From Clostridiales bacterium (GTDB lineage: Bacteria > Bacillota > Clostridia > Oscillospirales > QAMX01), in assembly GCA_012514045.1 (NCBI GenBank), contig JAAZBA010000059.1, forward strand, positions 1-33,825: DNA of 33,825 nucleotides, written 5' to 3'. The stretch's first letter is position 1; the number at the start of each line of letters is the position of its first letter. Under the pieces are notes generated by a model that did no database searches, had not been told where the DNA came from, and worked only from the letters and a program-made list of their open reading frames with translations. The translations under genes were made by a program, and so were the position numbers. This document shows, one piece after another, positions 9,275 through 31,825 of this stretch.

Positions 9275-11278
9275 ATGGACAATATGCTGAACAATATGAA
9301 GGAAATACTCAGCCGTCAAGTCAGCGGTTTTCATCAATATGTGTTGACCGATCCTGTTCACCTGAGCTATGTCAGCCGTAATCTTTGTGAGATGATCGGT
9401 GTTCGTAAAGAAGAACTGCTGGATGACAGCAGCGATCGGTACGCACTGTTTGTGCATCCCGCTGATCGGAAGAAATATTCGGATTTTATAGAAAGACTTG
9501 CATGTAAAGATCAGACTCTTACCGAAGAGTATCGTCTCATAAAGAAAGACGGCACTGTAATTTGGGTAAGGGATATTGCTGCGTCTAAAAAGACATACAA
9601 GGGCATCCCTGTCGGCACTTCTGTTCTGACAGACATAACCGACCTGAAAAACGAAAATGACGATCTGCGGTTTTTAAATGAGACTATTCCCTGCGGTTTT
9701 TTGAAATACACCTGTGAGAAGCAGCCGAGAATAACCTATATCAATCAAAAAATGATCGATATACTGCGTCTTCCGGAGACAAGGGACGGAGAACTGGATT
9801 ATCTGGAAATGTATAAGAGCAACATTTTTCTGATGATTCCGATGGAGGAACGAAGAAGATTTTCAAAGTATCTTAACCGTGTTTATTCTTCGGAAACTCC
9901 CATTGCCGGAGAGATAGCTGTGCTTCGCTGTGACGGTACCCGTGCCTATTTATTCGGATGGGTTACAAAAGGCGTTAATGAACAAGGCGAAGCGGAGTTC
10001 CAAAGCGTTTGTATGGATATTACAGAACGATATCAAATGAGAAAGACGAGCGAAACTAAGCGTTATCTGAAAGCACTTACTGATGTCTACGATATGATTT
10101 TTGAATTTAATTTGGATGCTAACACCGTGAAATGCTTGCATAGCGATGAAAAATCATATTTTAAGAGATTTGAGGATATCGCGATGCAGATCGAAGATGC
10201 GCTGGAGAGATGGCTTCTTGTTTCGATTGCTCCCGAAAACCAGGACAATGTTCGCGGCTTTTTTAAGGATTTTTGCCAGAAAAGGCTTTACGAGGCTGAT
10301 TCGAAGCCGCCGCAAATAACCTACAGCGCGCTTTCCACTGATGGGACTATCAGAAATTATACAGGAGTTTTCATTAAAGTTGATGAATCGGTAAGTTTCT
10401 ATTGCTGCCGTAAAATGCAGGACGCTTCTAATACGGAAGCGCTGAAAAGCGAAAACGACCAGCTAAAAGAAGACATGCGGGATTTGGTTATGCGGTTTTC
10501 CGATGGTATCGCCGCTTTTGAGGTGTCGCCGAAAGGGCTGGTGAGGCCGCTGTACGCCAGCGAAAATGTGTGTGAGTTTTTCGGTTATACGAAAGAGGAA
10601 TGGCTTCCACTGACAACACGCTTTACACCTTTGGAAAATTTCGTAGCGTACAGCGAAGTAGCATATGAGGATTTTGCTGAGCTTCTCAGGAAAGGCGAGG
10701 CTGAGTTTTCCTATTTTGACGTTAAAACGGAAGCAGAGCGTAAAATCAAAGCCATCTGCTCACAAAGAGAGCAGAGCGGCGCATCTTCCAGGTACGTTAT
10801 GCTTTATGCCATAGAAGACACTGAGTCCGAAGAGAATAAGGTATTGCCTGAGAATAGCACCGTTTCTATTCGCACATTCGGGTACTTTGATGTGTTCGTC
10901 GGCGATAAGCCGATCGCGTTCCGCAACAAAAAATCAAAAGAGCTTTTGGCGCTTCTCGTCGATCGCAGAGGCGGATATGTTACATCTGAAGAGGCTATCG
11001 GGTTTTTGTGGGAAAATGAACCCGCCAACGCCATGACACTTTCCAGATATCGCAAGGTTGCGCTGCGATTGAAGAACACATTGGAAGAATATGGTATTCC
11101 GGACATTATTGAATCAGTTGACGGCAAACGTCGTATTGTAATGGAGGAAGTCCAATGCGATCTGTTCAATTATCTTTCCGGAAAAGAAGAATTCTCTCAG
11201 CTTTTCAAGGGTAGTTACCTGACAAATTACAGCTGGGGAGAAACAACTCTGGGAGAGCTGATGAGCAATCAGAAATAG
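9275..11278 (+). CDS. Multi-PAS one-component transcriptional regulator with C-terminal SARP/OmpR-type winged-helix (BTAD-like) DNA-binding domain
   Basis: 667 aa. There are at least three PAS-like modules (for example YVSRNLCEMIGVRKEELL...YRLIKKDGTVIWVRD..LTDITDLK, then ITYINQKMIDIL...LRCDGTRAYLFGWV..CMDITERY, then LYASENVCEFFGYTKEEW). The C-terminus is IRTFGYFDVFVGDKPIAFRNKKSKELLALLVDRRGGYVTSEEAIGFLW...LSRYRKVALRLKNTL...VQCDLFNYL, which is the SARP-type wHTH pattern. Confidence 0.7.
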   Translation: MDNMLNNMKEILSRQVSGFHQYVLTDPVHLSYVSRNLCEMIGVRKEELLDDSSDRYALFVHPADRKKYSDFIERLACKDQTLTEEYRLIKKDGTVIWVRDIAASKKTYKGIPVGTSVLTDITDLKNENDDLRFLNETIPCGFLKYTCEKQPRITYINQKMIDILRLPETRDGELDYLEMYKSNIFLMIPMEERRRFSKYLNRVYSSETPIAGEIAVLRCDGTRAYLFGWVTKGVNEQGEAEFQSVCMDITERYQMRKTSETKRYLKALTDVYDMIFEFNLDANTVKCLHSDEKSYFKRFEDIAMQIEDALERWLLVSIAPENQDNVRGFFKDFCQKRLYEADSKPPQITYSALSTDGTIRNYTGVFIKVDESVSFYCCRKMQDASNTEALKSENDQLKEDMRDLVMRFSDGIAAFEVSPKGLVRPLYASENVCEFFGYTKEEWLPLTTRFTPLENFVAYSEVAYEDFAELLRKGEAEFSYFDVKTEAERKIKAICSQREQSGASSRYVMLYAIEDTESEENKVLPENSTVSIRTFGYFDVFVGDKPIAFRNKKSKELLALLVDRRGGYVTSEEAIGFLWENEPANAMTLSRYRKVALRLKNTLEEYGIPDIIESVDGKRRIVMEEVQCDLFNYLSGKEEFSQLFKGSYLTNYSWGETTLGELMSNQK

Positions 11279-11287
11279 AGGATTGAT

Positions 11288-11695
11288 ATGAGCAAGTACA
11301 TCCATAAGGTCAATTATTATGAGACCGATAAAATGGGGATAACCCACCATTCAAATTATATTCGCTTTATGGAAGAGGCAAGATTGAATTTTTTGTCTGA
11401 AATAGGTTATCCGATGACACGTCTAGAGGCCGAAGGCATCACTTCGCCTGTGGTATCGGTAAGCTGTGAGTATAAGTACACCACCACCTATAGCGATGAA
11501 ATTGAGATTGAGGTAAGCGTAGCTGGGTACAATGGAGTAAAACTGACACTTTTCTACGAAATGAGGAACAAACAGAATGATGTATTGATAGCAACCGCTT
11601 CATCTGTTAATTGCTTTATTGATGAAAATGGAAAACCGATCGCATTGAGAAAATATGTTCCCGATTTTGATGATATATTAAAAACAATAGATTGA
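11288..11695 (+). CDS. Acyl-CoA thioesterase, 4HBT/YbgC-type hotdog fold
   Basis: 135 aa. N-terminal VNYYETDKMGITHHSNYIRFMEEAR carries the catalytic Asp context of 4HBT-class thioesterases. The gene starts 9 nt after the regulator stop. Confidence 0.8.
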   Translation: MSKYIHKVNYYETDKMGITHHSNYIRFMEEARLNFLSEIGYPMTRLEAEGITSPVVSVSCEYKYTTTYSDEIEIEVSVAGYNGVKLTLFYEMRNKQNDVLIATASSVNCFIDENGKPIALRKYVPDFDDILKTID

Positions 11696-11710: not shown

Positions 11711-11750
11711 AGAAAGCGATACATTTTAAGTTATCGCTTTCTTTTGTTTT
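11711..11750. terminator. Bidirectional rho-independent terminator shared by the convergent + and - operons
   Basis: The stem is AGAAAGCGATA (11711-11721) / TATCGCTTTCT (11732-11742) with a 10-nt loop. An A-run lies 5' and TTTGTTTTT lies 3', so a U-tract follows the hairpin on either strand. Confidence 0.85.
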
Positions 11751-11779: not shown

Positions 11780-13363
11780 TTACTTAAGTCCGGATAGCAT
11801 TGACAGAGTCTCTTCAACGAGTCTCTGTCCCCCCTCAGGAGAAACTGCGTTGCAGAACACGCTGGCGGAATAGCCCTTGCCGGCGACACCGCGCTCTGTT
11901 GCGAGGTATGACCCGCTGCCTCTGCCATCCGGCTGACCACAGAGCTGCACGATAAAAGTCTGCGCAAAGGGGCTTCTCGCCTGAATGCGGTGCATGAAGT
12001 CCATATACAGCTCGAACTGACTTGTCGCGAAGGCTATGTTGCCGACCTTTACGGCGTGAACTTCGGCGGAAAACGTTGGCTTAATTTTCGAAGCTTCATA
12101 TCTCTGCGCTATGCGGACAAAACGGTTGCGCTTCGATTTTAGAATGGAGTTGTAGTCAAGATTTTCTTTCGCGCTGCCTATGTCGAATTTGAACGGCTCC
12201 TTCTTGAGCTGCTCTATACTTTCAAGCGCGGTATTGTACTGTTCCTCACTTATATCACGTCTCTCAAGCTCCAGAGTGCGAACTTCGTGCGCAAGCGCCG
12301 CGCCGTAATCTATGTCGTTCTTCGCCCAGCTGTATATCTCCTCAACCGCAAAGCATACCCGCTCGGCTATATCCCTGCGCGCAAGCTCCTCGACACGTCC
12401 GGTTACGTCATCTACACCATACTTGAGCATAAAACGTCTGTTCTGCGCTTTTTTATAGTGTAGTATACGCGGCGACAGATCACCGCCGGCGGCGCACTGA
12501 GCGAGGATAGGGATGTTCCCGAGCTTTTCACGCACGGCTTTTTTCACATCGTGCCAGTAGTCGGCGCTTATAAGCTGGCTGTATTCGCTTTCTGAGCACT
12601 GGGAGGGGCAGGGGATATTGATGACCGCGCCTGTCAGTTTCTTTTCGGTATCGAAAGCAAACATTACGTTTACGGTGTGGTCTGCGCCGGCCTCGTAGTG
12701 GCTGAATTGTTCGTCATCTGTGTTTCCGTACATGACTGCGTGACCGTGCACAGCGGTGAGCGAATTGAGCTCTACTCCGGGACGCTTGGAATAGTCGTCA
12801 AAATAGACAGTTCTGCGGCTGTGCGCGACGACAGCATAGCCGTAACCATAGGCGATGCCCGTCTCGCGGCGCGTTTCGTAGGCTTCAATTATAGCGTCTG
12901 ACACTTGCTCCGCGACATAGTCTCTATATTCATCGCTCGACGATATTTGCATTCCCGGGCGCGGGACATCCATAAAGGACTGAGGGATATACGTTTCCAA
13001 TTCTTTTTTGAGCTGTTCCTCGGAAAATCGCTCAATCAGCGTCTCATCGAGCTTACCGCCGTCGTAATAATGGCTAGCGGCATTGTGGGAATGGGTCATG
13101 AAGGCGATTATTTTGCTCTCTGTCAGCTGTGGACACTTATTTACCGCTTTTCCACGGATTTCATCTGTGATCCACTTGCGCATACTCGTGCCGTCTATCG
13201 AAACAAAAACAGTGACGTCTCCTCCATTCTCAAGCACGAGCGCCGTCGTTGTCAGCGGATCCACAACGCCTTCGGATATTCTCATATTGTGATGTCCGGG
13301 GATATGGGACGGACCCTTCGGAGTGATGTCGCGCTCCGCCCAGCCTGCTTTCAGTTTTCCCAT
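11780..13363 (-). CDS. Ceramidase-like putative metallohydrolase, tandem paralog 1 (last gene of operon; subclade A)
   Basis: 527 aa with no signal peptide. It shares the family blocks GWAERDITP, THSH, HSRRTVYFDD, HGHAVMYG, HYEAGADH, NIPCPSQ, ADYWHD, GDLSPR, RRDIAERV, FELYMDFMHRIQARSPF and GSYLATERG..GKGYSAS. The CDS is certain but the family name is tentative. Confidence 0.6.
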   Translation of the reverse strand: MGKLKAGWAERDITPKGPSHIPGHHNMRISEGVVDPLTTTALVLENGGDVTVFVSIDGTSMRKWITDEIRGKAVNKCPQLTESKIIAFMTHSHNAASHYYDGGKLDETLIERFSEEQLKKELETYIPQSFMDVPRPGMQISSSDEYRDYVAEQVSDAIIEAYETRRETGIAYGYGYAVVAHSRRTVYFDDYSKRPGVELNSLTAVHGHAVMYGNTDDEQFSHYEAGADHTVNVMFAFDTEKKLTGAVINIPCPSQCSESEYSQLISADYWHDVKKAVREKLGNIPILAQCAAGGDLSPRILHYKKAQNRRFMLKYGVDDVTGRVEELARRDIAERVCFAVEEIYSWAKNDIDYGAALAHEVRTLELERRDISEEQYNTALESIEQLKKEPFKFDIGSAKENLDYNSILKSKRNRFVRIAQRYEASKIKPTFSAEVHAVKVGNIAFATSQFELYMDFMHRIQARSPFAQTFIVQLCGQPDGRGSGSYLATERGVAGKGYSASVFCNAVSPEGGQRLVEETLSMLSGLK

Positions 13364-13406
13364 ACTGTTATGATCCTTTCGCTGTATTATGCGAGGTTAT
13401 TACATG

Positions 13407-13436
13407 CAGCCACCCGAACTTCTATCCGGGCGGCTG
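13407..13436 (-). other. Intercistronic stem-loop between paralogs 2 and 1
   Basis: On the minus-strand RNA, CAGCCGCCCG / CGGGUGGCUG form a 10-bp stem (one G-U pair) with a 10-nt loop and no U-tract. Confidence 0.4.
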
Positions 13437-13451
13437 TGGATTGATTATTCT

Positions 13452-15056
13452 TTAGTCGCTGAGTTTGCGCAACTCTTCAAGAGTTTTTTCGACAAGCTCC
13501 TGACCGCCCTCGTATGAGACAACGTTACAGAACCTCGACGCGGAATACCCTTTGCCCTCATTGGCGCGCTCGGTGCACAGATAAGATCCGGAGTTTGCCA
13601 AGGGCTGCGCGCACAACTGAACAATAAAAGTCTGGCGGAAGGGACTTCTCGCCTGGATACGGTGCATGAAGTCCATATAGAGCTCAAACTGATTCGAGGC
13701 GAATGCGATGTCGCCGATGCGAATAATATGAACCTCGGTGCTGTGCTTGTCGCTCTGCTTCTGGCTTTCGTAGCGAAGCATCAAAGCCTTGTTGCGAAGC
13801 GCCTGAGACGGTCCGACAGAACGCTGCTCAAGCTGCTCTATCTCGTCACCTTCAATTTTCTCGGGTTTCATGTTCATATACATCTCGTAATCGCTTTTGG
13901 AAATCTCGTACTCCTCATCGGTGATCATTCTGCGTGAAAGCTCAAACGTCTTAACAGTGTGCTTTACCGGCGCATCGTAGACAATGGCTTTCTTAGCCCA
14001 CGCCAGCGCCTCGTCAAAGGCATACGCGACTCTCTCGGCAATATCGCGGCGAGCGTACAGCTCGCGGTTGATGTTTTCAGGCTGAGAATCGTCGTAAATG
14101 CCCTCATATTTGAGGCGGAAGCGGCGGTCCTGAGCCTTCCTGTAGTGCATAATACGCGGAGAAAGGTCTCCGCTGGCGGCAGCCTGACCGATCAGCGGAA
14201 TGTCACCGTATCTCGCGTGGATTTCGCGGCGGATATCCGTCCAGTAGTCGGCGGTGACGCCGCGCAAGCCCTCGGTATTCTGGGAAGGGCACGGAATATT
14301 GACGACAGCTCCCGTCAAATTGCCCTTTGTGTCGAAGGTATAGAGGAGGTTGACCGTATGGTCGGCGCCCGCCTCATAGTGACTGAACTGCTCGTCATTT
14401 GGATTGCCGTACATCATCGCGTGGCCGTGAAGCGCAGTGGCGGCGTTTAGCTTTACGCCAGGACGCTTTGAAATATCGTCGAAGTAGACTGTTCTGCGGC
14501 TGTGAGAGACGACAGCGAAGCCGTAAGCCGCGGAAATGCCGCCCTCGGCGCGGTTGGCATACGCCTCACAGATGGCGTCAGACGCCTGCTCGGTGAGAAA
14601 ATCGCGGTAATCGTCGCCGCTCATGACATCGAGTCCGCCCAGATCCACATAACTGCGAAGCGACATTATCTCGGTGCGTTCGCGCTCTTTTTCAAGCTGC
14701 TCCCGTGTGTAGCCGAGCTTCATTAGGCGGTCCAGGTTCAGCTTCTCCCTCGTGTCGTGGCGCTGGTCAGGACCGGTGTGCGCGTGAGTGGAGTTTGCGA
14801 GTATCTTCCACACGTCGATTTCGGGGTTCTTCTCCATGACTTTCGCGCGAATCTCGTCGATTACGAAAGGCATGAGCGACATACAGTCGACAGACAGGAA
14901 TATAGCCGTATCGTCACCGCCGTCGACGACGAGGGCGGTACAGCTTATCGGGTCGTATACGCCTCTCGAGAAGCGGTAAACAATATGTCCGGGCAAGTCA
15001 GTGAGCTTATCGACGGTTATGTCGCGCCTCGCCCATCCGATTTTAAGAGTTCCCAT
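13452..15056 (-). CDS. Ceramidase-like putative metallohydrolase, tandem paralog 2 (subclade B)
   Basis: 534 aa with the same invariant blocks. It carries the subclade-B insert after THAHTGP (..KLNLDRLMKLGYTREQL..). AAGGAG RBS 8 nt upstream. Confidence 0.6.
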   Translation of the reverse strand: MGTLKIGWARRDITVDKLTDLPGHIVYRFSRGVYDPISCTALVVDGGDDTAIFLSVDCMSLMPFVIDEIRAKVMEKNPEIDVWKILANSTHAHTGPDQRHDTREKLNLDRLMKLGYTREQLEKERERTEIMSLRSYVDLGGLDVMSGDDYRDFLTEQASDAICEAYANRAEGGISAAYGFAVVSHSRRTVYFDDISKRPGVKLNAATALHGHAMMYGNPNDEQFSHYEAGADHTVNLLYTFDTKGNLTGAVVNIPCPSQNTEGLRGVTADYWTDIRREIHARYGDIPLIGQAAASGDLSPRIMHYRKAQDRRFRLKYEGIYDDSQPENINRELYARRDIAERVAYAFDEALAWAKKAIVYDAPVKHTVKTFELSRRMITDEEYEISKSDYEMYMNMKPEKIEGDEIEQLEQRSVGPSQALRNKALMLRYESQKQSDKHSTEVHIIRIGDIAFASNQFELYMDFMHRIQARSPFRQTFIVQLCAQPLANSGSYLCTERANEGKGYSASRFCNVVSYEGGQELVEKTLEELRKLSD

Positions 15057-15095
15057 ATTGAAGTCTCCTTAGCTTTGTGACTTAGTTGTTTAGAC

Positions 15096-16706
15096 TTAAT
15101 TCTCGTGTATTTTGTTTAGCATTTCGAGTGTGCCCTCGACAAGATCCTGTCCTCCTTTTACAGAGGCGAGGTTATCGTACATGCTGGTGGAATAGCCCTT
15201 GTTCTCGAACGCTCTCTGAGTGCATATATATGTTTCTCCCCCTCTGAGCGTCATTCCGCAAAGCTGCACGACGAAGGTCTGTCCGAAGGGGCTTCTCGCC
15301 TGAATGCGGTGCATGAAGTCCATATACAGCTCAAATGTGTTCGTGGCAAACGCCATATCATCAACACGGACGGCGTGAACTTCGGCGGCAACCTTTTTGT
15401 CGGGCGACTGATTGTTATATCGGTGGATAACATGCTTTAGTCTTATGATGGACGCGGGGTAATTTGAGAGCTCGACGAGTCTGAAGTATGGATCGTCGCT
15501 GGTCGCGGTCTGCTCACGCTGCTCGTAGTCGGCAAGCATATCGACGGCGAGCTTGTATTCCTCGTCAGTGATAAGTCTCGGGTCGAGCTGAAGAAGTTTC
15601 GTCTCGTGCTTCAGAGTAATGTCGCGGCGGATGTCCTTCTTCGCCCAGGAAAGCACCTCGTCAAACGCCCAGCAGATCCTCTCCGCTATGTCACGGCGGT
15701 TTTTAAGCTCTCTGTTCTGTATCTCATTCTGCTGCGGGTCGGTTTCCTCGCCGAATTTGAGGTTGAGACGGCGGTCAAACGCCTTTTTGTAGTGCATCAT
15801 GTGGGGCGACAGGTCGCCGGCGGCAGCGCACTGGGGCAGTATAGGAATGTTGCCGTATTTCGCTCTCAGCTCGCGCTTTACATCGCACCAGTAGTCGGCG
15901 GTGAGCATATTCATGCCTTCGGAGCACTGGGAAGGGCAGGGCACGTTGATTACCGCGCCATTCAGCTTGTCGTTTTCATCGAAGGTAAAGAGAATATTAA
16001 CAAAATGGTCGGCTCCCGCCTCGTAATGGCTGAACTGGGGATCCGTTGTGTCGCCGTACATCATGGCGTGGCCGTGGACAGCGGTTCTCGCGTTGCGCTC
16101 GACACCCGGGCGCTTGGAAAGATCGTCAAAATAGACGGCGCGGCGGCTGTGACCGACAACGGCGTAGCCGTAGCCGTAGGAGAAACCGCCATACTTGCGG
16201 TTGGCGTAAGCTTCGCATATCGCGTCTGATGCGAGATCGGTGAAATATTCGCGGGAGTCATCTCCGTCGCCTATCTCGATGTCACCGTTGTCGACGTAAT
16301 TAAAGAGCGACGCCCCTTCCTCATACTCCGCGACAGCCCTGATCGTCTCCTCTGAGTAGCCAAGCTTACAAAGGCGCTCTATGTTAAGTTTTCCCGGAAT
16401 TTCGTGGTCATAGCTGGGGCCGGTGTGGGCGTGGGTGGTGTTTGCGATGATTTTCCACACATCTATCTCGGGATTTTTCTCGAGAACTTTGGCGCGTATT
16501 TCATCAAGGGCAAAGGCGCGCAGCGCCATACCGTCGACGGAGAGGAAAATCGCGATATCCTCACCGTTTTCGAGGACGAGCGCTGTCGTCGTCAACGGGT
16601 CATGAACGCCGTCGCGGGGAAAGTGGTAAGCGAGATGACCGGGGAGGTTTATCATCTTTCTGTAGGTGATGTCTCTTTCTGCCCAGCCGATTTTAAGTTT
16701 TCCCAT
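15096..16706 (-). CDS. Ceramidase-like putative metallohydrolase, tandem paralog 3 (subclade B)
   Basis: 536 aa with the same invariant blocks. After THAHTGP comes ..KLNIERLCKLGYSEETI.., as in paralog 2. Confidence 0.6.
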   Translation of the reverse strand: MGKLKIGWAERDITYRKMINLPGHLAYHFPRDGVHDPLTTTALVLENGEDIAIFLSVDGMALRAFALDEIRAKVLEKNPEIDVWKIIANTTHAHTGPSYDHEIPGKLNIERLCKLGYSEETIRAVAEYEEGASLFNYVDNGDIEIGDGDDSREYFTDLASDAICEAYANRKYGGFSYGYGYAVVGHSRRAVYFDDLSKRPGVERNARTAVHGHAMMYGDTTDPQFSHYEAGADHFVNILFTFDENDKLNGAVINVPCPSQCSEGMNMLTADYWCDVKRELRAKYGNIPILPQCAAAGDLSPHMMHYKKAFDRRLNLKFGEETDPQQNEIQNRELKNRRDIAERICWAFDEVLSWAKKDIRRDITLKHETKLLQLDPRLITDEEYKLAVDMLADYEQREQTATSDDPYFRLVELSNYPASIIRLKHVIHRYNNQSPDKKVAAEVHAVRVDDMAFATNTFELYMDFMHRIQARSPFGQTFVVQLCGMTLRGGETYICTQRAFENKGYSTSMYDNLASVKGGQDLVEGTLEMLNKIHEN

Positions 16707-16775
16707 ACCGTTTCCTTTCTTTTTTTAACGCTTTCTCTCCCCGGAGGAAGGGAAGCGATGAGAATAATATATTTA

Positions 16776-18368
16776 TCAGTCAGCCAGTTCGTTTAGGATA
16801 TCAAGCGTTCTGTTGACCATTTCCTGGCCTCCCTCACAGGAGACGAGGTTGCAGAACATGGAAGCGGAGTAACCTCTTCCTTCACGAGCGCGCTCGGTAC
16901 ACAGGTAGGAACCGCCTTCCATGCCGGGCTGACCGGCAATCTGTACGATGAAGGTCTGCTCAAAGGGGCTTCTTGCCTGAATGCGGTGCATATAATCCAT
17001 ATAAAGCTCGAAGCGGTTGGAGGCAAAAGCGATATCACCGATCCTGATGACGTGCATCTCCATCGGGAATTTCTTCTCTGTCTTCTGGTTTTTGTAGCGG
17101 TCTATTATTTTGCTGAAACGGTTGCGTTTGGACTTAAGGACGGAGTTGTTGTTGAGATTATGTCTTGCAGTTTCGAGGTCATAGCGATAATCTTCCTTGG
17201 CAAGCTCTTCGAGCTGCTGCAGAGAGTACTCATATTCCTCGTCTGTAATCATTCTCTTTGAAAGCTCGACGGTTTCAACGACGTGCGCGAGCTTTACGTC
17301 TTTCTTTATGTCCTTCTTAGCCCAGGAAAGAACCTCATCGAACGCCCACGCGACGCGCTCACCTATCTCAAGGCGCTCAATGTTCTCGCAATTGCCTTTG
17401 AGTTCTTCGGAGGTCTTGTCGTACTTGAGCGTGAACTTGTGGACTCTGGCATCTAGGTAGTACTGCTGATGGGGAGAAAGATCACCGCCGGCGGCGCACT
17501 GACCGAGTATTTTGATATCATCGCCGTACTTCGCGCGGATTTCTCTCTTTATGTCATGCCAGTAGTCTGCGGTGAGGTTAAGGTAGCATTGGCTTTCGGA
17601 CGCCTGCGACGGGCAGGGGATGTTGATTATTGCGCCGGTGAGCTTGTCTGCAGCGTCGAATGTGAACATGATGTTTATAAACGGATCGTCGCCTGCCTCA
17701 AAGTGGCTGAAGTTGTCGTCGTTGGTGTTGCCGTACATGACAGCGTGACCGTGGACAGCGGTAAGAGAGTTGAGCTCGACGTCCGGGCGTTTGGAATAGT
17801 CGTCGAAGTAGACGGTTCTGCGGCTTCTCGCGACGATGGCATAACCGTAGCCGTAACCGATACCGCCTTCTGCGCGCTTCTCATACGCCTCACAGATGGC
17901 TTCGGAGGCGCTCTGAGCGAGGAACTCGCGGTACTTGTCGCTTGACTCGATCTCCATGCCGGGGCGCGGCACATCCATGTAACTATTGGGGATGTACGAT
18001 GCCAGCATCGCCTTAAGCTGCTCGTCGGTGTACTGATCCTTGATATATTCGGAAAGCTCGCCTCCATCGTAGTAATGGCTCGGCGCCTCATGCGTATGGG
18101 TGGCGTTGGCAAGAATCTTCATTACGGGGATTTCGGGGTTTATTTTCGCGACTCTGCCGCGGATTTCGTCGAGCAGGAAGCAGCGGATAACGACGCAGTC
18201 GATGGAGAGGAATATCGCCATATCATCGCCGGAGTCGACAACGAGCGCTGTTGTCGTGATGGGGTCCATGACGCCGACAGAGATTCTCATATTGAAGTGT
18301 CCGGGTATAAAATGCGGTCCCGAGGGCGTAACATCGCGTTCCGCCCAGCCTATTTTAATAGTACCCAT
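16776..18368 (-). CDS. Ceramidase-like paralog 4 (subclade A), lacking two otherwise invariant histidines
   Basis: 530 aa with the family blocks present. However it has ARSRRTVYFDD instead of HSRR, HFEAGDDPF instead of EAGADH, and LEIGERV instead of RRDIAERV. Its GGAGG RBS lies inside the 3' end of paralog 5, with a 4-nt gap between the genes. Confidence 0.6.
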   Translation of the reverse strand: MGTIKIGWAERDVTPSGPHFIPGHFNMRISVGVMDPITTTALVVDSGDDMAIFLSIDCVVIRCFLLDEIRGRVAKINPEIPVMKILANATHTHEAPSHYYDGGELSEYIKDQYTDEQLKAMLASYIPNSYMDVPRPGMEIESSDKYREFLAQSASEAICEAYEKRAEGGIGYGYGYAIVARSRRTVYFDDYSKRPDVELNSLTAVHGHAVMYGNTNDDNFSHFEAGDDPFINIMFTFDAADKLTGAIINIPCPSQASESQCYLNLTADYWHDIKREIRAKYGDDIKILGQCAAGGDLSPHQQYYLDARVHKFTLKYDKTSEELKGNCENIERLEIGERVAWAFDEVLSWAKKDIKKDVKLAHVVETVELSKRMITDEEYEYSLQQLEELAKEDYRYDLETARHNLNNNSVLKSKRNRFSKIIDRYKNQKTEKKFPMEMHVIRIGDIAFASNRFELYMDYMHRIQARSPFEQTFIVQIAGQPGMEGGSYLCTERAREGRGYSASMFCNLVSCEGGQEMVNRTLDILNELAD

Positions 18369-18372
18369 TTTT

Positions 18373-19977
18373 TTAGTCCTCCACAGCTAATTTATTTAAG
18401 ATTTCAAGCGTTTCTTCTACGAGCTCCTGACCGCCCTCAGCGGAAACAAGATTGCAGAACATGGATGCGGAATAGCCCTTGCCTTCCACACCACGCTTGG
18501 TGGCGAGATAGGAGCCGCCGCCCATACCGGGCTGGCCGGCAAGTTGAACGATGAAGGTCTGTTCGAAGGGACTTCTCGCCTGAATACGGTGCATATAGTC
18601 CATATACAGCTCGAAACGGTTCGAAGCGAAGGCGATGTCGCCGATTCTGATAACGTGCATCTCCATCGGGAGCTTTGGGTTCTCTTTCTGTGTCTCGTAG
18701 CGCTTGATGACGCCCAGATAGCGGTTTCTCTGTCCCTTGAGGTTGGAATTGCGCTCAAGATTGAGACGCGGAGAACCGTGATCAAAGCTGTACGGAATGT
18801 CCTTTATAGCGTCAAGCTGGGCTTTACAGAATTCGTATTCCTCGTCGGTTATGATCCTGCGGCTCAGCTCAACTGTCTTTACCACATGCGTAATAGGAGC
18901 CTCTTTGCGGATGTCATTTTTTGCCCAGGCGAGAGTTTCCTCGAAAGCGAAGGCGACTCTCTCGGCTATATCGCGGCGCTCAAGAGCCTCGACATTCTTC
19001 GGGATATCCTCCTCGGTGAACTCATCGCCGTACTTGAGCGCGAAGCGGCGCAGGCGGGCTTGCTTGTACATGAGAAGATGGGGAGACAGGTCACCGCCGG
19101 CGGCGCACTGTCCGAGAATCATGATGTCCTCGCCGAATTTTGCGCGTACCGCTTTTCTTATGTCGTGCCAGTAGTCTGCTGTCAGTCTTATGCGGGACTC
19201 GCCTTCAGAATTCTGTGAAGGGCAGGGGATATTGATGATGGCGCCGGTCAGCTTGTCGTTTGCGTCAAAGGTGAACATGAGGTTGACAAAGTGGTCGGCT
19301 CCCGCCTCAAAGTGGCTGAACTGGTCATCATTGGTGTTGCCGTACATGACCGCGTGACCGTGGAGAGAGGTCAGCGGGTTGAGGACGGTCGTGGGGCGCT
19401 TGCCGAAGTCATCAAAATAGACGGTTCTGCGGCTGTGCGAAACGACAGCGTAGCTGTAGCCATAGCTGATTCCCGCTTCGGCACGCTTCTCATACGCTTC
19501 GCAGATAGCCTCAGCGGCTTTGTCGGAAAGAAAATCGCGGTACTTATCGCTGGAGCCGAACTCCATACCATCTCTCGGAACGCCCATGAGGGAGGTGGGG
19601 ATGTAGTCATCGAGCATCTTCTGAAGCTCTTCAGGCGTGTACTGCTCCTTGATGGTCTCGTCTATCTCGCCGCCGTCGTAGTAGTGGCTGGGCGCTGTGT
19701 GCTGATGCATGGCGGACGCCAGAATTTTCATAACAGGGATAGCGGGGTTCTTGCGGCGAACTTTGCCGCGGATCTCGTCGAGCAGAAAACAGCGGATAAC
19801 AACAAGATCCATCGACAGGAATATGGCGATGTCGTTGTCGTCCTCTACAACGAGCGCGGTAGTTGTGATGGGGTCAATTATTTTCTCGGAGATACGCATC
19901 TCAAATGTACCGGGGATGTATACGGGACAATCCGGCGTCACATCGCGCTGAGCCCAGCCGATTCTAAGCTTTCCCAT
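18373..19977 (-). CDS. Ceramidase-like putative metallohydrolase, tandem paralog 5 (first of the five in the operon; subclade A)
   Basis: 534 aa with the same invariant blocks (MHQH for the H-x-H). By eye it is closest to paralog 4. Confidence 0.6.
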   Translation of the reverse strand: MGKLRIGWAQRDVTPDCPVYIPGTFEMRISEKIIDPITTTALVVEDDNDIAIFLSMDLVVIRCFLLDEIRGKVRRKNPAIPVMKILASAMHQHTAPSHYYDGGEIDETIKEQYTPEELQKMLDDYIPTSLMGVPRDGMEFGSSDKYRDFLSDKAAEAICEAYEKRAEAGISYGYSYAVVSHSRRTVYFDDFGKRPTTVLNPLTSLHGHAVMYGNTNDDQFSHFEAGADHFVNLMFTFDANDKLTGAIINIPCPSQNSEGESRIRLTADYWHDIRKAVRAKFGEDIMILGQCAAGGDLSPHLLMYKQARLRRFALKYGDEFTEEDIPKNVEALERRDIAERVAFAFEETLAWAKNDIRKEAPITHVVKTVELSRRIITDEEYEFCKAQLDAIKDIPYSFDHGSPRLNLERNSNLKGQRNRYLGVIKRYETQKENPKLPMEMHVIRIGDIAFASNRFELYMDYMHRIQARSPFEQTFIVQLAGQPGMGGGSYLATKRGVEGKGYSASMFCNLVSAEGGQELVEETLEILNKLAVED

Positions 19978-20022
19978 AATAAATTACCTCTTTCTTTCGT
20001 CATTATTTGTAAGGATATGGAA

Positions 20023-20069
20023 ACTGAGCCGCAGTTATGATGTTGCAAACATAATGATTACGGCTCAGT
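20023..20069 (-). other. Intercistronic stem-loop between the oxidoreductase pair and the five paralogs
   Basis: ACTGAGCCG (20023-20031) pairs with CGGCTCAGT (20061-20069) as a 9-bp stem around a 29-nt partly self-complementary loop. On the minus strand it is followed by only a weak U-tract (UUCCAUAU). Confidence 0.4.
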
Positions 20070-20082
20070 ATTTTACTATTAT

Positions 20083-21165
20083 TTAGTTGATGCGCGGGAC
20101 ATCAAGCCATACATGGCCCTGTACGGCGGCCTCATGGGCGATAAGTCCGGGGATTGTAAGCTCCATCGCCACGTCGACAGTCGTATACGGCTCCTTGCCG
20201 TACTGGACATAATCGAGGAACGCCTGAGAGATAAAGTAGTCGCTCGAGCCATGTCCGCCGGCAGCGAAAAGCGGCGCGTCAACAGCGGTCTGGTTTGAGA
20301 TGATGGGAATGGTGTTGCTGTATTTTGGATCGCTGCCCTCGAAGTAACGGCGGCCTTCGCCCTCGAAGCTGTGACGGGAAGCCTCGAGAGAGCCCTTCGT
20401 ACCGTAGATGTTGTAGGTTACAAGGCTGGGCTCACGCGGGGTGACCTGGCTGCGGCAAATTTTGACGATTCTGCCCTGCTTTGTTTCAAACAGCGCGACC
20501 TGCATATCGATAGTGGACGGCCACAGACCTTCCTGGATAGTGTTTTTGTTGCCCCAGGCGGTAGCCTTGGTTATGTAGTCACCGTTGCCGATAAGGAACA
20601 TTATCGGACCGAGGCAATGGGTGCAGTAGTGTATCGGCGGACGGTAGGTACGCCAGAATGTCTCACCGGTCTCGTTGTCGATGAGAAGATTTCTGATGTC
20701 ATGGATGTACTCACCCTCAGCGTAATGGATGTTTCCGATCTTGCCTGCGTCGATGTACTTCTTCCACTGCTGGATATAATCGTAATAGATATAGTTCTCG
20801 GCGAGCATATACTTCGCCGTTGAGCGTTTTGCGGCATCATAGATTGCCTGGCAGCCTTCGATGGTGTTCGAAGCTGTAACTTCGCTGAATACATGTTTGC
20901 CTGCGTCGAGAGCCTTTACGGTCTGCTCGGCGTGGAAGGGGATAGGTGTTCCGACAACGACGGCGTCTATGTCGGCATTGAGAAATTCATCGAAATCTGT
21001 AAAACACTGGTTATCGGCAAGATTGCAGTCCTTGGAAGACTGCTCAAGGCTCGTCTCGTTGAGGTCGCAGATAGCGGTTATCTCAGAGCGATCGCCTCTG
21101 CCGAAATTCTTCATATAATTGCCGCCGCGGCGAATGCCGACTACGCCAACCTTCAATTTATCCAT
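20083..21165 (-). CDS. Gfo/Idh/MocA-family NAD(P)-dependent oxidoreductase, paralog 1
   Basis: 360 aa. The N-terminal Rossmann segment is LKVGVVGIRRGGNY...ITAICDL...DAVVVGTPIPFHAEQTVKALDAGKHVFSEV. The C-terminal alpha/beta domain carries the EGEYIHD block. GAGGAGG RBS. Confidence 0.8.
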   Translation of the reverse strand: MDKLKVGVVGIRRGGNYMKNFGRGDRSEITAICDLNETSLEQSSKDCNLADNQCFTDFDEFLNADIDAVVVGTPIPFHAEQTVKALDAGKHVFSEVTASNTIEGCQAIYDAAKRSTAKYMLAENYIYYDYIQQWKKYIDAGKIGNIHYAEGEYIHDIRNLLIDNETGETFWRTYRPPIHYCTHCLGPIMFLIGNGDYITKATAWGNKNTIQEGLWPSTIDMQVALFETKQGRIVKICRSQVTPREPSLVTYNIYGTKGSLEASRHSFEGEGRRYFEGSDPKYSNTIPIISNQTAVDAPLFAAGGHGSSDYFISQAFLDYVQYGKEPYTTVDVAMELTIPGLIAHEAAVQGHVWLDVPRIN

Positions 21166-21200
21166 AGTTTATGCTTCCTCCTCTTTTAATACTTCCGTTC

Positions 21201-22283
21201 TCAGTCAGTGAAATGCGGAACATCGAGCCATACGTTGCCCTGTACGGCAGCCTCGTGGGCGATAAGTCCGGGAAGAGTAATCTCCATGGCGCGGTCGACA
21301 GTCGTCGGAGGAGTCTTGTCGAACTGGATGAAATCAAGAAACGCCTCGGAAAGATAGTAGTCGCTTGTTCCGTGACCGCCCTTGGCGTAATCGGGAGCCT
21401 CGATCTCGGTCTGATAGCAGTTAATGAGCTTGCCTCTGTGGGTATCCTCGCCCTCAAAGTAACGGGAGCCGACGGTCTCGCCGCCGTGACGGGTGTTCTC
21501 GAGGAAGCCCTTGGTACCGTAAACACTGTAGTAAACGGTGTGCGGCTCGGGACGCGGGGTGACCTGGCTGCGGCAAATCTTAATGCCTCTGCCTTTCTTC
21601 GTCTCAAATAGCGCGACCTGCATATCGATGGTGGAGGGCCACAGACCTTCCTGGATGGTGTTCTTGTTGCCGCTGGCGGTAGCCTTGACGATGTAGTCGT
21701 CATCGCCTATGAGGTACATAAGCGGGCCGAGGCAGTGGGTGCAGTAATGTATCGGCGGTCGATATTTACGCCAGAAGGTCTCACCGGAATCGGTGTTAAT
21801 AAGAAGATTTCTGATGTCGTGGATGTACTCGGCTTCGGCATAGTGGATGTTTCCAATCTTGCCAGCGTCGATATACTTCTTCCACTCCTTGATGAAATGG
21901 AAATAGATGTAGTTTTCCGCGAGCATATACTTAGCCTTGGAGCGCTTCGCGGCGTCATAGATAGCTTTGCAGCCCTCTACGGTGTTGGCAGCGGTGACCT
22001 CGCTGAGGACGTGCTTGCCAGCGTCGAGAGCCTTTACACTTTGTTCGGCATGGAAAGGAATGGGTGTTCCGACAACTACGATATCAACATCGGTGTTGAT
22101 AAACGCATCGTAATCAGTGAACACCTGATTGTCTGAGAGATTAAGATCCTTGGAGACCGCCTCGAGTCTCTTCTCGTCGAGGTCGCAGATAGCGGTGACC
22201 TCGGTGCGCGCGTTCCTGGCATACTTCATCATGTAGGAACCGCCGCGGCTGACGCCAACCACGCCTACCTTCAACTTGCCCAT
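21201..22283 (-). CDS. Gfo/Idh/MocA-family NAD(P)-dependent oxidoreductase, paralog 2 (first gene of operon)
   Basis: 360 aa and collinear with paralog 1 over its full length, with long identical peptide runs such as VVVGTPIPFHAEQ, KYMLAENYIY, WKKYIDAGKIGNIHYAE, PPIHYCTHCLGP and IQEGLWPSTIDMQVALFETK. AGGAGG RBS. Confidence 0.8.
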   Translation of the reverse strand: MGKLKVGVVGVSRGGSYMMKYARNARTEVTAICDLDEKRLEAVSKDLNLSDNQVFTDYDAFINTDVDIVVVGTPIPFHAEQSVKALDAGKHVLSEVTAANTVEGCKAIYDAAKRSKAKYMLAENYIYFHFIKEWKKYIDAGKIGNIHYAEAEYIHDIRNLLINTDSGETFWRKYRPPIHYCTHCLGPLMYLIGDDDYIVKATASGNKNTIQEGLWPSTIDMQVALFETKKGRGIKICRSQVTPRPEPHTVYYSVYGTKGFLENTRHGGETVGSRYFEGEDTHRGKLINCYQTEIEAPDYAKGGHGTSDYYLSEAFLDFIQFDKTPPTTVDRAMEITLPGLIAHEAAVQGNVWLDVPHFTD

Positions 22284-22358: not shown

Positions 22359-22387
22359 ATTGTATCATCTGCCGATGACGGTGTAAA
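22359..22387 (-). promoter_or_regulatory. Sigma-A-type promoter of the oxidoreductase/paralog operon
   Basis: On the minus strand it reads TTTACA (22387-22382), a 17-nt spacer, then TGaTACAAT (-10 hexamer at 22364-22359). It lies about 75 nt upstream of ATG 22283. Confidence 0.65.
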
Positions 22388-22490: not shown

Positions 22491-24620
22491 CTATTTTCTG
22501 TATTGACCCGGAGCCACGCCAAAAACTTTCTTAAAAGCCTTATAGAAGGTGTTTGCGGAGTTGAAACCGCACTTGGCGGCAATGTTCGCGACCGATTCTC
22601 CGGTGTTCGTCAGAAGCTCCAGCGCTTTCTCCATCCTTAGATGCTCAAGGTACTCGGAGAAGCCGTATCCGGTGAAGTCCTTCACGATTCTGCCGACCTG
22701 CTTGGTGGAGATAGAGAACTTGTCGGCGATAAGCCCGGCGTACAGATCGGGATTCTGAAAGTTTTCCTCGATATATGTCACAAGGCTTTCCTTGTAGCTT
22801 TTAGCGCTGACAGATTTTTTCGTGCTGCCCGAAAGCTCCAGGCAGATATCCCCAAGTCTGGAAAACTGCTCGGCGGCGGGACGCAGATCATCGTATATAG
22901 GAAGAAATACATCGCGCTCACGTCTCTGCTCGTAGACCAGCATCGCGGGAACGCTTCGCAGAGCATAGTAGAAACTCTTTATCGTTTCAATATCTTCTCC
23001 CGCCGTCGCAACAGCCTGCGTTATTACCTCAAAAATTCTTTCGACCTCGCTGAGGTTATTCCTTTTTATCGCGGCATTGAGTGAATTGATGACAGGGGCG
23101 ATTGCCTCGTCTGACGGTGTCGTTTCGGAGCTGTCCCTCGGTTCAAGATAGCGAAGTGTACCGGGCGCATCGGGAGCGTACGCCTGTGTCTGCAGAAATA
23201 CACGCCGCACATTTACAGCGCCCGTGAACACTTCGGACACAACCACACGCAAATTTTCGTAGGGACTTATGAGCCTGTCAAATTCAGCGTTTTTTTCTGC
23301 TTCGAAAAGCGCGGCAAGACAGTTGGAGTTAATTCGGACGACCGTTATATCATCGCTGTCAAGCATAGGCATAAGACTTTCCGCCGTTAAACCGCTTGTA
23401 TCTGTATTGATTATGGCAAGGCGGGAGGGACGATCGAACATATTATCCGACCGTATAGCGGCTTCATACGCGCCGCCTAGCATGGCGTTGAGAAGCGTAC
23501 TTGAGCGAAGACAGCGTCCCGTCTCACGAAGCGAGGAGCGCAGTTCGTTGTTTGATATGGTGAGCTCCGCCGACACGCGGCGCAGGAAATCGAATTCATC
23601 GATACTGTTGCGCATCGTGTAGTCGCCGCGGCTTTCCTTTACAAGCCTGTATATGGGACGGTACGTGTAGAACGAGAGCACCAATACCATAAATACTCCG
23701 ACGAGCAGCATAACAATAATATATGTGAAAATAATGCGTTTTAGAGGCGCCGCCTCCTCTATGAAATAATCATCGGGAATACTGACGCTGATTTTTGCTT
23801 TAGCTACGGGTATATCATATGTATATACCGAAAACCGCTCCGTTCCCGCTGCCCCATAGGAGGTAAGCACGCTGCCGGAGTAATCTGTGACAGTGATATA
23901 CGAGTCTTCAGGGAGGTTTTCAAAGCCAAAAAGCTTCTCTAACTTTGACATCGGATATAAGGCGCAGAAGGTGGCAGTGCCGCGGTTCGGGCGCGTGACA
24001 AAAGTAAGGCAATCGACCTCTGCCACATTGTCAAGATATGCGTTTTTAATCGGCGATTGGGGTAAAAAACCCTGAGTCTCTGAGCGGGAAATCACAAGCG
24101 AGCTCATCTCGGCGCCTGTTTTCCCGCGATAGACCATAAATTTCCCGAAGAATTCGTTTCGGTCCATGTAGATGGAATTTAGGGATATTACCTTGGAATT
24201 GTTGTGAAAGAGTATAAATAGCTCCTTGACGCCTTCGATGCTTGAAGCGCAGCTTGCAAGCTGTCTTCTAACGTTGATTAGGCTGTAAATGTCCTGCGAT
24301 GTAAAGCGTTCGTCGGTAAGGGAACGAAGCATAAGAAAATCACCCGGAGGTATGGAATTATTGATGTTCATCACAGTTTCCAGCGACATTGTGAAACGCT
24401 CTGCGCCCGTGTCCAGTATAAGCTCGCAGTCGTGACGCGCTTCGCGGTCAACAACCTTTATCGCCGTTCTGTATATCGGTACGGAGAAGACAATGATGAT
24501 GGAAAGGACAATGAAATATAAGACAATGTAACGATACAGGACTGACTTTCCGCGTCCATGGCGGGGTTTTACGATACTATTGTCTGTATTTTCAATATCT
24601 TCGCTGATTTTTCGAGGCAT
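22491..24620 (-). CDS. Membrane-spanning AraC/XylS-family one-component regulator (TM - extracytoplasmic sensor domain - TM - cytoplasmic linker - HTH_AraC)
   Basis: 709 aa with two hydrophobic segments (YIVLYFIVLSIIIVFSVPIY and IIFTYIIVMLLVGVFMVLVLSFY) bracketing about 270 aa. The C-terminus is a canonical double-HTH AraC domain (LIADKFSISTKQVGRIVKDFTG...IAAKCGFNSANTFYKAFKKVFGVAPGQYR). GGGAG RBS 8 nt upstream. Confidence 0.8.
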   Translation of the reverse strand: MPRKISEDIENTDNSIVKPRHGRGKSVLYRYIVLYFIVLSIIIVFSVPIYRTAIKVVDREARHDCELILDTGAERFTMSLETVMNINNSIPPGDFLMLRSLTDERFTSQDIYSLINVRRQLASCASSIEGVKELFILFHNNSKVISLNSIYMDRNEFFGKFMVYRGKTGAEMSSLVISRSETQGFLPQSPIKNAYLDNVAEVDCLTFVTRPNRGTATFCALYPMSKLEKLFGFENLPEDSYITVTDYSGSVLTSYGAAGTERFSVYTYDIPVAKAKISVSIPDDYFIEEAAPLKRIIFTYIIVMLLVGVFMVLVLSFYTYRPIYRLVKESRGDYTMRNSIDEFDFLRRVSAELTISNNELRSSLRETGRCLRSSTLLNAMLGGAYEAAIRSDNMFDRPSRLAIINTDTSGLTAESLMPMLDSDDITVVRINSNCLAALFEAEKNAEFDRLISPYENLRVVVSEVFTGAVNVRRVFLQTQAYAPDAPGTLRYLEPRDSSETTPSDEAIAPVINSLNAAIKRNNLSEVERIFEVITQAVATAGEDIETIKSFYYALRSVPAMLVYEQRRERDVFLPIYDDLRPAAEQFSRLGDICLELSGSTKKSVSAKSYKESLVTYIEENFQNPDLYAGLIADKFSISTKQVGRIVKDFTGYGFSEYLEHLRMEKALELLTNTGESVANIAAKCGFNSANTFYKAFKKVFGVAPGQYRK

Positions 24621-25172: not shown

Positions 25173-25322
25173 CATTATATAACCTAACGGACACGGCTGC
25201 CGGCGCATATGAGGGATTGGCGCAGTCTACAATTGACACAAGCTGTGTGTGATTATGTTTCGCCGTTCCCGAAATACAAGACCTGCAATTCCGTGTACGA
25301 ATATAATAAAGGAGTATATCCC

Positions 25323-27215: not shown

Positions 27216-27267
27216 TCGTAATCGCAATAACCTGACTCTGCTTAAGCTTTAAGTTATGCTATGTTTA

Positions 27268-27299
27268 CCGCGGGCGGACTCGCGCGAGTCCGCCCGCGG
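27268..27299 (+). other. Perfect GC-rich intercistronic hairpin between the SBP and permease genes
   Basis: CCGCGGGCGGACTCG-CG-CGAGTCCGCCCGCGG forms 15-bp perfect arms with no U-tract after it (GTGCATACAAC). Confidence 0.75.
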
Positions 27300-27344
27300 G
27301 TGCATACAACAAATTTGCTCTAACGGCCGAAAGGGGAAATGCTC

Positions 27345-31767: not shown

Positions 31768-31796
31768 AGCAATCTCCAAACATCTCGTTTTAAAAG

Positions 31797-31825
31797 ATAG
31801 TATCACAGAGAAATCAGAACGTCAA
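31797..31825 (-). promoter_or_regulatory. Sigma-A-type promoter of the 356-aa orphan gene
   Basis: On the minus strand it reads TTGACG (31825-31820), a 17-nt spacer, then TGaTACTAT (-10 hexamer at 31802-31797). Confidence 0.55.

Follow-up and report, generated by a model that had tools for sequence, protein, structure and literature searches.

The object of this work is a stretch of 33,825 nucleotides (positions 1 to 33,825 of contig JAAZBA010000059.1, assembly GCA_012514045.1), hereafter the window, in which we recognize a sugar-utilisation operon of an uncultured anaerobic Clostridia bacterium with five tandem genes for a cytoplasmic enzyme, a very distant and modified relative of neutral ceramidase. 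The operon consists of seven co-directional open reading frames (ORFs) of the minus strand, running from position 22283 down to 11780, and the ORF list places them exactly at the coordinates given by a first-pass annotation, an earlier reading of the bare sequence. Two paralogous genes for oxidoreductases come first, gfo1 (21201–22283), specifying a cytoplasmic NAD(P)-dependent sugar oxidoreductase of the Gfo/Idh/MocA family, and gfo2 (20083–21165), both specifying 360 residues and 73% identical in their products. They are followed by five long paralogues: cerA (18373–19977, 534 residues, ceramidase fold, catalytic domain only), cerB (16776–18368, 530 residues, 68% identical to cerA), cerC (15096–16706, 536 residues, the most divergent of the set, with 50–57% identity to the others and a long branch), cerD (13452–15056, 534 residues, grouping with cerC) and cerE (11780–13363, 527 residues). 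The gaps between successive genes, computed from the ORF coordinates, are 35, 105, 4, 69, 39 and 88 nucleotides, the range of 4–105 that had been claimed. Signal peptides and transmembrane segments are lacking in all seven proteins, as had also been noted.

A promoter-like site, which is to be read as a consensus match only, lies on the minus strand at 22359–22387, 76 nucleotides upstream of the gfo1 start codon. It associates TTTACA and TACAAT, spaced by 17 nucleotides, with an extended TG, and the gfo1 ATG is itself preceded by an AGGAGG ribosome-binding site. At the other end of the operon, inspection of the sequence at 11711–11750 (minus strand) displays a hairpin, AAAGAAAGCGATA ... TATCGCTTTCTTT, made of a 13-bp stem and a loop of 10 nucleotides and followed by a run of T residues. 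The automatic terminator scanner missed it, its limit for a loop being 8 nucleotides. This hairpin is likely to be the intrinsic terminator of the operon and it may work in both directions, because a convergent thioesterase gene ends at 11695. Both signals had been proposed at these very sites. The terminator scan recovered no minus-strand terminator-like site in the gaps between the genes of the operon, which we infer to be transcribed as one unit. Three weaker promoter-like matches are visible on the same strand at 19976–20105, in or beside the 105-nucleotide gap that separates gfo2 from cerA, where an internal start might also transcribe the five paralogues. An Rfam scan identified no regulatory RNA in the window. 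On the plus strand, between 12905 and 20040, antisense ORFs of up to 249 residues (for example 19291–20040) shadow the operon; real genes overlap them completely and we treat them as artefacts. Finally, the same gene order is present in an independent assembly (Logan SRR13001970, locus L142; the loci compared in this work bear such L numbers), with 99.88% identity over 6.5 kb, and the array is therefore not a misassembly. It is an identical protein, P0001, that led to this locus; exact-sequence look-up of cerA and cerC in an assembly index returned no match.

The five long proteins are unmistakably related to one another, with pairwise identities of 50–68% over their full length, far above chance. 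The invariant blocks that had been listed for them are largely shared, some of them being near-invariant rather than strictly so (cerB has RLEIGERV and HFEAGDDP, cerC has ETYICT...GYSTS). No Pfam or NCBIfam model matches any of the five, and the ceramidase model PF04734 (Ceramidase_alk, gathering score 32.1 bits) is absent even at E≤1. The earlier view that these proteins are ceramidase-like consequently finds nothing in Pfam for the five proteins themselves, but it holds when folds and profiles are considered. Indeed, when an AlphaFold2 model of the cerA product, built with 37 homologues (pLDDT 90, pTM 0.92), was compared with the PDB using Foldseek, neutral ceramidases came out, PaCD of P. 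aeruginosa (2zws, E=1.8e-19, and 2zxc) and the human enzyme (4wgk), with E-values up to 4.3e-17, a probability of 1.0 and a TM-score of 0.6 for a sequence identity of 11–14%. No other fold neighbour in the PDB is credible, the next match having E=2e-3 and a TM-score of 0.12. Sequence profiles lead to the same enzymes. A profile of the five window sequences reaches 2zws only at E=0.13, and it is because this is below significance that a profile of 67 representatives of the family (30–68% identity) was needed; this larger profile gives E=9.7e-13 with 2zws and E=1.3e-9 with 4wgk. Weak matches to PF04734 are found in 45 of the 67 family members (E≤0.01; best E=3.5e-11). Furthermore, neighbouring genes in loci L002 and L083 encode proteins of 430 residues that pass the Pfam threshold for Ceramidase_alk, and hhalign aligns the family with these Pfam-positive neighbours at a probability of 100% (E=1.9e-57, 429 columns). 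Because the fold, the profile and the hhalign matches all point to ceramidases, the family is a deep and divergent branch of the ceramidase superfamily, of which the subclade present in the window has drifted below Pfam detection.

The five paralogues consist of the catalytic domain only. They have 527–536 residues, versus 630–690 for ceramidases, and no C-terminal Pfam match; in the cerA model a helix (513–532) ends the protein directly after the catalytic core, and the C-terminal beta-sandwich domain is absent. At the other end the conserved core begins at residue 2, with neither signal peptide nor transmembrane helix, so that the five proteins are cytoplasmic.

Conservation within the family singles out a putative active site. 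Seven residues, H91, H93, R183, G295, E456, Y490 and Y502, are invariant in the 67 sequences, and the set also holds in 130 full-length cluster representatives. A HMMER alignment to the human neutral ceramidase (numbering of the 4wgk chain, with an offset of +98) matches H91 with H194, H93 with H196, E456 with E540, Y490 with Y579 and Y502 with Y591, and we take H194 and E540 of the human enzyme to be zinc ligands. The pair R183/R184 falls on the arginine of the N-R-S motif (in PaCD) of ceramidases. The catalytic residues published for the human enzyme are His196, Arg257, Tyr579 and Tyr591 (PMC6952831). All five copies of the window keep H91, H93, R183, R184, E224, D228, C252, P253, Q255, E258, G295, D296, E456, Y490 and Y502. 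The site departs from that of ceramidases at one zinc ligand. His204 of the F-P-V-H-S-T motif of PaCD is the second zinc-binding ligand, and HMMER, MAFFT and hhalign alignments all bring P253, from a (C)P(S/A)Q motif, to this position; the short Pfam-positive group has A-L-H-A-N there and keeps the canonical histidine. None of the 130 representatives has a histidine at position 252 or 253, and nearly all of them have Gln255. The idea of Cys252 as an obligatory replacement ligand finds no support: about 80% of the 130 representatives have it, the remainder showing S, T, A, Y, F or M. With (C)P(S/A)Q in place of the canonical histidine, the metal site of the five proteins is predicted to differ from that of true ceramidases. 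The first-pass annotation had looked for metal ligands, besides H-x-H, in a His-rich block located some 110 residues after this motif (HGHA), and in H(Y/F)EAGADH. These assignments must be abandoned: H206, H208, H222 and H229 are found in 6, 20, 31 and 38 of the 67 sequences, respectively, and HGHA, which sits in a lineage-specific insertion missing in most of the family, does not correspond to the second zinc ligand of ceramidases.

An altered set of ligands suggests a changed chemistry, and the proteins might be metal-dependent hydrolases that act on sugar bonds other than amides, such as O-acyl esters, sulfamates, O-sulfates, phosphoesters or lactones. The zinc site of the human neutral ceramidase is able to bind phosphate, as the PDB title of 4wgk indicates. 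Yet all the residues to which amide hydrolysis is ascribed in ceramidases are invariant in the family, in which no esterase-type or sulfatase-type motif is present; genomic context, considered below, bears on this alternative too.

How the five copies arose can be approached from a neighbour-joining tree, in which they fall, together with three copies from L083, into a single subclade of proteins of about 530 residues that carries an insertion at residues 100–135. The L083 copies are 79–87% identical to each other, versus 50–68% for those of the window, and to judge from the tree they are a separate, independent amplification. Both cerC and cerD sit on long branches, and no orthologue of cerC with more than 50% identity was found in the genome and metagenome collections. 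Each of the window's copies breaks 2 to 6 of 65 family-conserved positions, the figure for cerC being 6/65. Because the catalytic set is kept and few conserved positions are broken, the five copies look like old and diverged enzymes that are predicted to be active, and their divergence fits substrate specialisation better than a recent dosage amplification.

The family to which they belong is very large. When relatives are clustered at 50% identity, an exhaustive profile search recovered 4,296 clusters for E≤1e-3, of which 1,337 have E≤1e-10 and 417 E≤1e-30, while a word-indexed search gave at least 1,671 relatives, nearly all of them named "hypothetical protein". We found no characterised bacterial enzyme of the ceramidase fold in sugar metabolism in the literature, nor a paper on the family, in agreement with the previous statement that it is uncharacterised. 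The genome matches correspond to 286 loci, 80 of which were retrieved and form the basis of the locus counts given here. They come from metagenome-assembled genomes of Lentisphaerota, Verrucomicrobiota/Kiritimatiellia, Clostridia, Planctomycetota and Latescibacterota, with digesters, rumen and sediments as sources, family members being most numerous in Lentisphaerota, Kiritimatiellia and Planctomycetota. In Clostridia one often meets tandem arrays composed of divergent subgroups (L005, L007, L055, L057, L068, L076).

The partners of the family across these loci belong to sugar and amino-sugar catabolism. DegT aminotransferases are immediate same-strand neighbours (8/88), together with xylose-isomerase-like TIM barrels, further Ceramidase_alk proteins, FGGY kinases, sugar transporters of the major facilitator superfamily (MFS) and of the ABC type, and glycoside hydrolases (GH) of families GH3, GH28, GH38 and GH39. 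Counted by locus, xylose-isomerase-like TIM barrels are present in 14/80, a fucose-isomerase-like protein in 13/80, a GH5-like protein of 660 residues in 11/80 and DegT aminotransferases in 9/80. A module recurs, AraC, DegT – family (one to three copies) – TIM barrel (one or two copies), sometimes followed by Gfo, both in Bacillota (L015, L032) and in Lentisphaerota (L034, L047, L056, L060, L063, L070, L075); its TIM-barrel partners resemble sugar isomerases or dehydratases. The DegT and TIM-barrel partners point to amine or amide chemistry: an aminotransferase beside an enzyme of amidase fold fits the release of a free amine, as would be needed by a route in which the substrate is deacylated and then transaminated.

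It is here that the alternative of non-amide hydrolysis can be weighed further. The family abounds in Lentisphaerota, Kiritimatiellia and Planctomycetota, which are degraders of sulfated and heavily decorated glycans, and in two Victivallales genomes an arylsulfatase gene is located inside the module, between family members and the TIM-barrel gene (L060, 12895–14346, NCBIfam PRK13759 with 499 bits for a cut-off of 481; a homologue is present in L070). Nevertheless, aminotransferases that adjoin the family are best explained by the release of a free amine, and, the amide-hydrolysing residues being invariant, we consider it unlikely that the proteins are hydrolases of ester, sulfate, sulfamate, phosphoester or lactone bonds.

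Other neighbours deserve mention for their own sake. The recurrent protein of about 660 residues (L057, 3243–5225, with homologues beside the family in 11/80 loci) has no Pfam match; at the N-terminal side it shows a weak resemblance to GH5 mannanases (PDB 3pz9, E=2.6e-4) and it is probably an unclassified glycosidase. In L002 (11711–12463) and L083 (9641–10399) a nucleotidyltransferase gene of the AadA_C type, that is, resembling aminoglycoside adenylyltransferases, directly follows the family genes within the syntenic operon; it is absent from the window. The presence of an enzyme of a type acting on aminoglycosides beside genes of amino-sugar type may be more than a coincidence.

The two oxidoreductases that open the operon had been described as Gfo/Idh/MocA paralogues, and this description stands: besides their 73% identity, they score 60 and 67 bits with PF01408 (67 for gfo1) and 33 and 34 bits with PF02894 (34 for gfo1), all above cut-offs. 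Their closest solved structures are DgpA, GH109 and levoglucosan dehydrogenase, with E-values of 1e-13 to 1e-15; for gfo1, a PDB search gave E=2e-15 with DgpA (7xr9) and E=3e-14 with GH109. Weak as they are, the similarities to DgpA and GH109 bear mainly on the N-terminal Rossmann domain. The GH109 structure 6t2b aligns with residues 1–359, at only E=3e-14. PF21252 (Glyco_hydro_109_C) is also matched, with 36 and 35 bits for a cut-off of 27, overlapping generic matches to the Gfo C-terminal domain. Among the NCBIfam equivalogs compared (IolG, levoglucosan dehydrogenase, the glycoside 3-dehydrogenases BT2158/2159 and UDP-GlcNAc 3-dehydrogenase) none was reached, with 41–68 bits for cut-offs of 355–750 bits. 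The tandem gfo1–gfo2 pair is kept as a unit in L002, L083, L140 and L141. This conserved pairing suggests a joint action of the two proteins, perhaps in a heteromer. In L140 (8001–10187) and L141 (8001–10201), which come from two Oscillospiraceae metagenome-assembled genomes, orthologues of both genes with 60–75% identity form a two-gene unit in a locus devoid of any member of the ceramidase-fold family, where they are accompanied by GH2, an Opp-type ABC transporter, GDPD, an MFS transporter and GH28.

This distribution matters for the scheme put forward by the first-pass annotation, according to which the operon would be an oxidise-then-cleave module: the Gfo enzymes would oxidise carbon 3 of a glycoside and the five paralogues would cleave the resulting 3-keto-glycosides, in a non-hydrolytic or keto-dependent manner. 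Gfo and family genes do share one operon in the window, and L002, with a single family copy, and L083, with three copies, repeat its layout: a divergent set of a solute-binding protein (SBP) and two permeases, followed by AraC, the two Gfo genes and the family genes. Known oxidise-then-cleave systems rely on a xylose-isomerase-like TIM barrel for the cleavage. Such barrels exist as separate genes in 14 of the 80 family loci, so that the cleaving role is filled there, and the family keeps a complete set of amidase catalytic residues. DgpABC provides an established route of this kind (PMC10539306), and the best solved relatives of the Gfo pair as well as its PF21252 matches are in line with it, weak and centred on the Rossmann domain as the DgpA and GH109 similarities are. 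Up to 10 kb away from family members, an iterative hidden Markov model search found a Gfo/Idh/MocA gene of any kind in 12/80 loci, and tblastn found close relatives of the window's own Gfo genes in 5/80; elsewhere the partners are DegT proteins and TIM barrels. Conserved co-occurrence had been predicted; examined from the Gfo side as well as from that of the family, linkage to Gfo does not hold as a family trait. Because Gfo is found in 12/80 family loci and the Gfo pair lives without the family in L140 and L141, the linkage is facultative in both directions: it characterizes the window, L002 and L083, and is loose in a few other loci. Coupling of oxidation to cleavage did not pass the linkage test set beforehand, and we find it quite improbable that the paralogues cleave 3-keto-glycosides made by the Gfo enzymes.

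Upstream of the operon, the adjoining importer and sensor that had been noticed are indeed there. The gene at 22491–24620 (minus strand) encodes an AraC-family regulator of 709 residues with a C-terminal HTH_18 domain and two transmembrane helices (about 24–46 and 289–312) that surround an extracytoplasmic domain of about 240 residues. The latter has no Pfam match and could be a ligand-sensing domain of undescribed type. The protein is a probable sensor-regulator of the locus; its position is kept in L002. Divergently oriented, an ABC sugar importer occupies 25209–29254 (plus strand), with an SBP followed by permeases at 27339–28331 and 28325–29254, and this trio also flanks the operon in L002 and L083. 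The SBP ORF (25209–27215) is probably called 38 codons early, its true start being M39, at position 25323, which opens a lipoprotein signal peptide with the lipobox FAGC. A low-complexity linker rich in Thr, Lys and Glu is present in this protein and creates spurious Pfam matches (New_glue, ETRAMP, SpoIIIAH). Its closest PDB entries are 5xs8/5gub (E=2e-21), FusA and AlgQ1/2, which bind acidic oligosaccharides or fructo-oligosaccharides; naming a ligand from them was rejected, as similarities of E~1e-21 over part of the protein are too distant. The last gene of the importer operon (29347–30432, plus strand) specifies a cytoplasmic GH-A-like TIM-barrel glycosidase of 361 residues, with weak GH2_C and GH5 matches. 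Further on, a cytoplasmic protein of 369 residues (30697–31806, minus strand) has neither a Pfam nor a PDB match; a homologue with 31% identity lies within the family array of L007 (17693–18793), but it is no recurrent partner (1/80 loci). A DUF772 transposase fragment (32898–33341, minus strand) is found near the contig end, about 1 kb past the locus.

On the other side of the operon the plus strand carries genes of lipid metabolism: a fab/acc cluster between 132 and 9018 (FabK-like NMO, FabD, FabG, FabF, AccB, FabZ, AccC, AccD and AccA), ended by an AMP-binding, acyl-CoA-ligase-like gene (7384–9018), then a protein of 667 residues (9275–11278) with a PAS match over its N-terminal 120 residues or so and some 540 residues without Pfam match, and the 4HBT thioesterase (11288–11695) that converges on the operon's terminator. 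We regard all of them as unrelated to the operon, the cluster looking complete and of housekeeping type. They nonetheless invite the idea that the five paralogues are genuine lipid amidases, hydrolysing ceramide, glycosphingolipids or N-acyl lipids and feeding fatty acids to the adjoining ligase and thioesterase; after all, ceramidases are the only characterised homologues of the family. However, these genes run on the other strand towards the operon's terminator and make up a common housekeeping cluster for fatty-acid synthesis, the five proteins reside in the cytoplasm and have no C-terminal domain, import relies on an ABC transporter of sugar type, and the partners met in the 80 loci are sugar enzymes rather than lipid enzymes. 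Lipid amide hydrolysis is thus highly improbable.

We may now propose an explanation that brings these elements together. The operon would be a cytoplasmic catabolic unit for an imported, sugar-derived substrate: the membrane sensor-regulator of the AraC family would control the locus, and the divergent importer with its lipoprotein SBP would take the substrate in. The five paralogues would then be cytoplasmic, metal-dependent N-deacylases acting on imported amino-sugar substrates, a tentative assignment to which we attribute a probability of roughly 0.45. H91, E456 and Y490 would hold a metal ion that activates a water molecule, with H93 acting as general base, and R183/R184, Y490 and Y502 would stabilise the tetrahedral intermediate. 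In this way mono- or oligosaccharides that contain an amino sugar would lose an N-acyl group or some closely related group linked through a carbonyl, the five copies most likely serving different but related substrates. The Gfo pair would most likely perform a redox step on the sugar skeleton, before or after deacylation, without producing the bond on which the paralogues act. The data establish the gene structure, the homology and the fold, the conservation of residues, the location in the cytoplasm and the neighbourhood counts; amide hydrolysis, the nature of the substrate, the division of labour between the copies and the role of the Gfo enzymes are what we infer.

Several observations weigh against this proposal. 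The canonical second zinc ligand is absent and a neighbouring cysteine exists in only about 80% of the representatives, which makes metal content, and even metal dependence, uncertain. A site combining zinc, tyrosines and arginines could also hydrolyse esters, sulfamates or phosphoesters, and the human enzyme of 4wgk carries, according to its title, a zinc-bound phosphate. The window itself has neither an aminotransferase nor a TIM-barrel partner, so that the amine route drawn from other loci may not apply to it, and linkage to DegT is limited to 9 of the 80 loci. In the same vein, it can be imagined, though we think it unlikely, that the (C)P(S/A)Q branch turned from amide hydrolysis to another chemistry, directed at keto-activated glycosides made by Gfo, or at N-sulfo or N-glycosyl linkages. 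The tandem arrays would then be the specificity panels of an undescribed class of carbohydrate-active enzymes, and a new catabolic route would exist in anaerobic glycan degraders.

Should N-deacylation of amino sugars be the correct answer, a new fold would be added to those of the carbohydrate de-N-acylases, and a possible route for unusual amino sugars (deacylate, transaminate, isomerise, reduce) would become clearer. Whatever the activity, its assignment would annotate thousands of "hypothetical proteins" of a family that has no solved structure and, for the subclade of the window, no usable Pfam or NCBIfam model. Repeated amplification into tandem arrays in sugar loci usually marks a class of enzymes facing chemically diverse substrates, and the window is a good entry point, with five intact and diverged copies in a compact operon that possesses its own regulator and importer.

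It is worth placing this system among those already known. With neutral ceramidases (PaCD, 2zws/2zxc; ASAH2, 4wgk) the cerA protein has in common the fold of the catalytic domain, with H-x-H, the arginine of N-R-S or R-R, the glutamate ligand, the tyrosine ligand and the second tyrosine at aligned positions, and presumably a mechanism in which metal-activated water attacks a carbonyl. The differences are considerable: sequence identity amounts to 11–14% with no PF04734 match, a proline replaces the second zinc histidine, the C-terminal beta-sandwich and the signal peptide are lacking, whereas ceramidases are secreted or ecto-enzymes, and the genes of the family belong to sugar-catabolic operons, often in tandem arrays. 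The substrate of the five proteins is almost certainly not ceramide. Nearer relatives are the short Pfam-passing Ceramidase_alk proteins (about 430 residues), likewise uncharacterised, that adjoin the family in L002, L083, L034, L060 and L075. They are homologous to it over their full length, belong to the same operons, are cytoplasmic, consist of the catalytic domain only and share H-x-H, R-R, E, Y and Y, but they retain the histidine ligand in A-L-H-A-N and lack the insertions of the family's proteins of 500–535 residues.

Functional parallels are of another kind. DgpA/DgpBC, LgdA/LgdB and the Bacteroides BT2156–2160 system all have, as the window does, a Gfo/Idh/MocA oxidoreductase in a sugar-catabolic operon, and gfo1 has DgpA and levoglucosan dehydrogenase among its nearest solved structures. 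Unlike these routes, the window has no xylose-isomerase-like TIM barrel (PF01261) among the proteins scanned, and its association of Gfo with the ceramidase-fold family is facultative; we know of no case in which the ceramidase fold has been implicated in them. A relation of the Gfo pair to the NAD-dependent glycosidases of family GH109 is at most tentative, its PF21252 match overlapping generic ones and the similarity being weak. Finally, the role proposed for the five paralogues would be analogous to that of NagA (CE9), of LmbE-type enzymes (CE14) and of NodB-type enzymes (CE4), namely cytoplasmic, metal-dependent removal of an N-acyl group. The folds and the catalytic residues of these enzymes are unrelated to those of the products of cerA to cerE, and the ceramidase fold would be a newcomer to this task.

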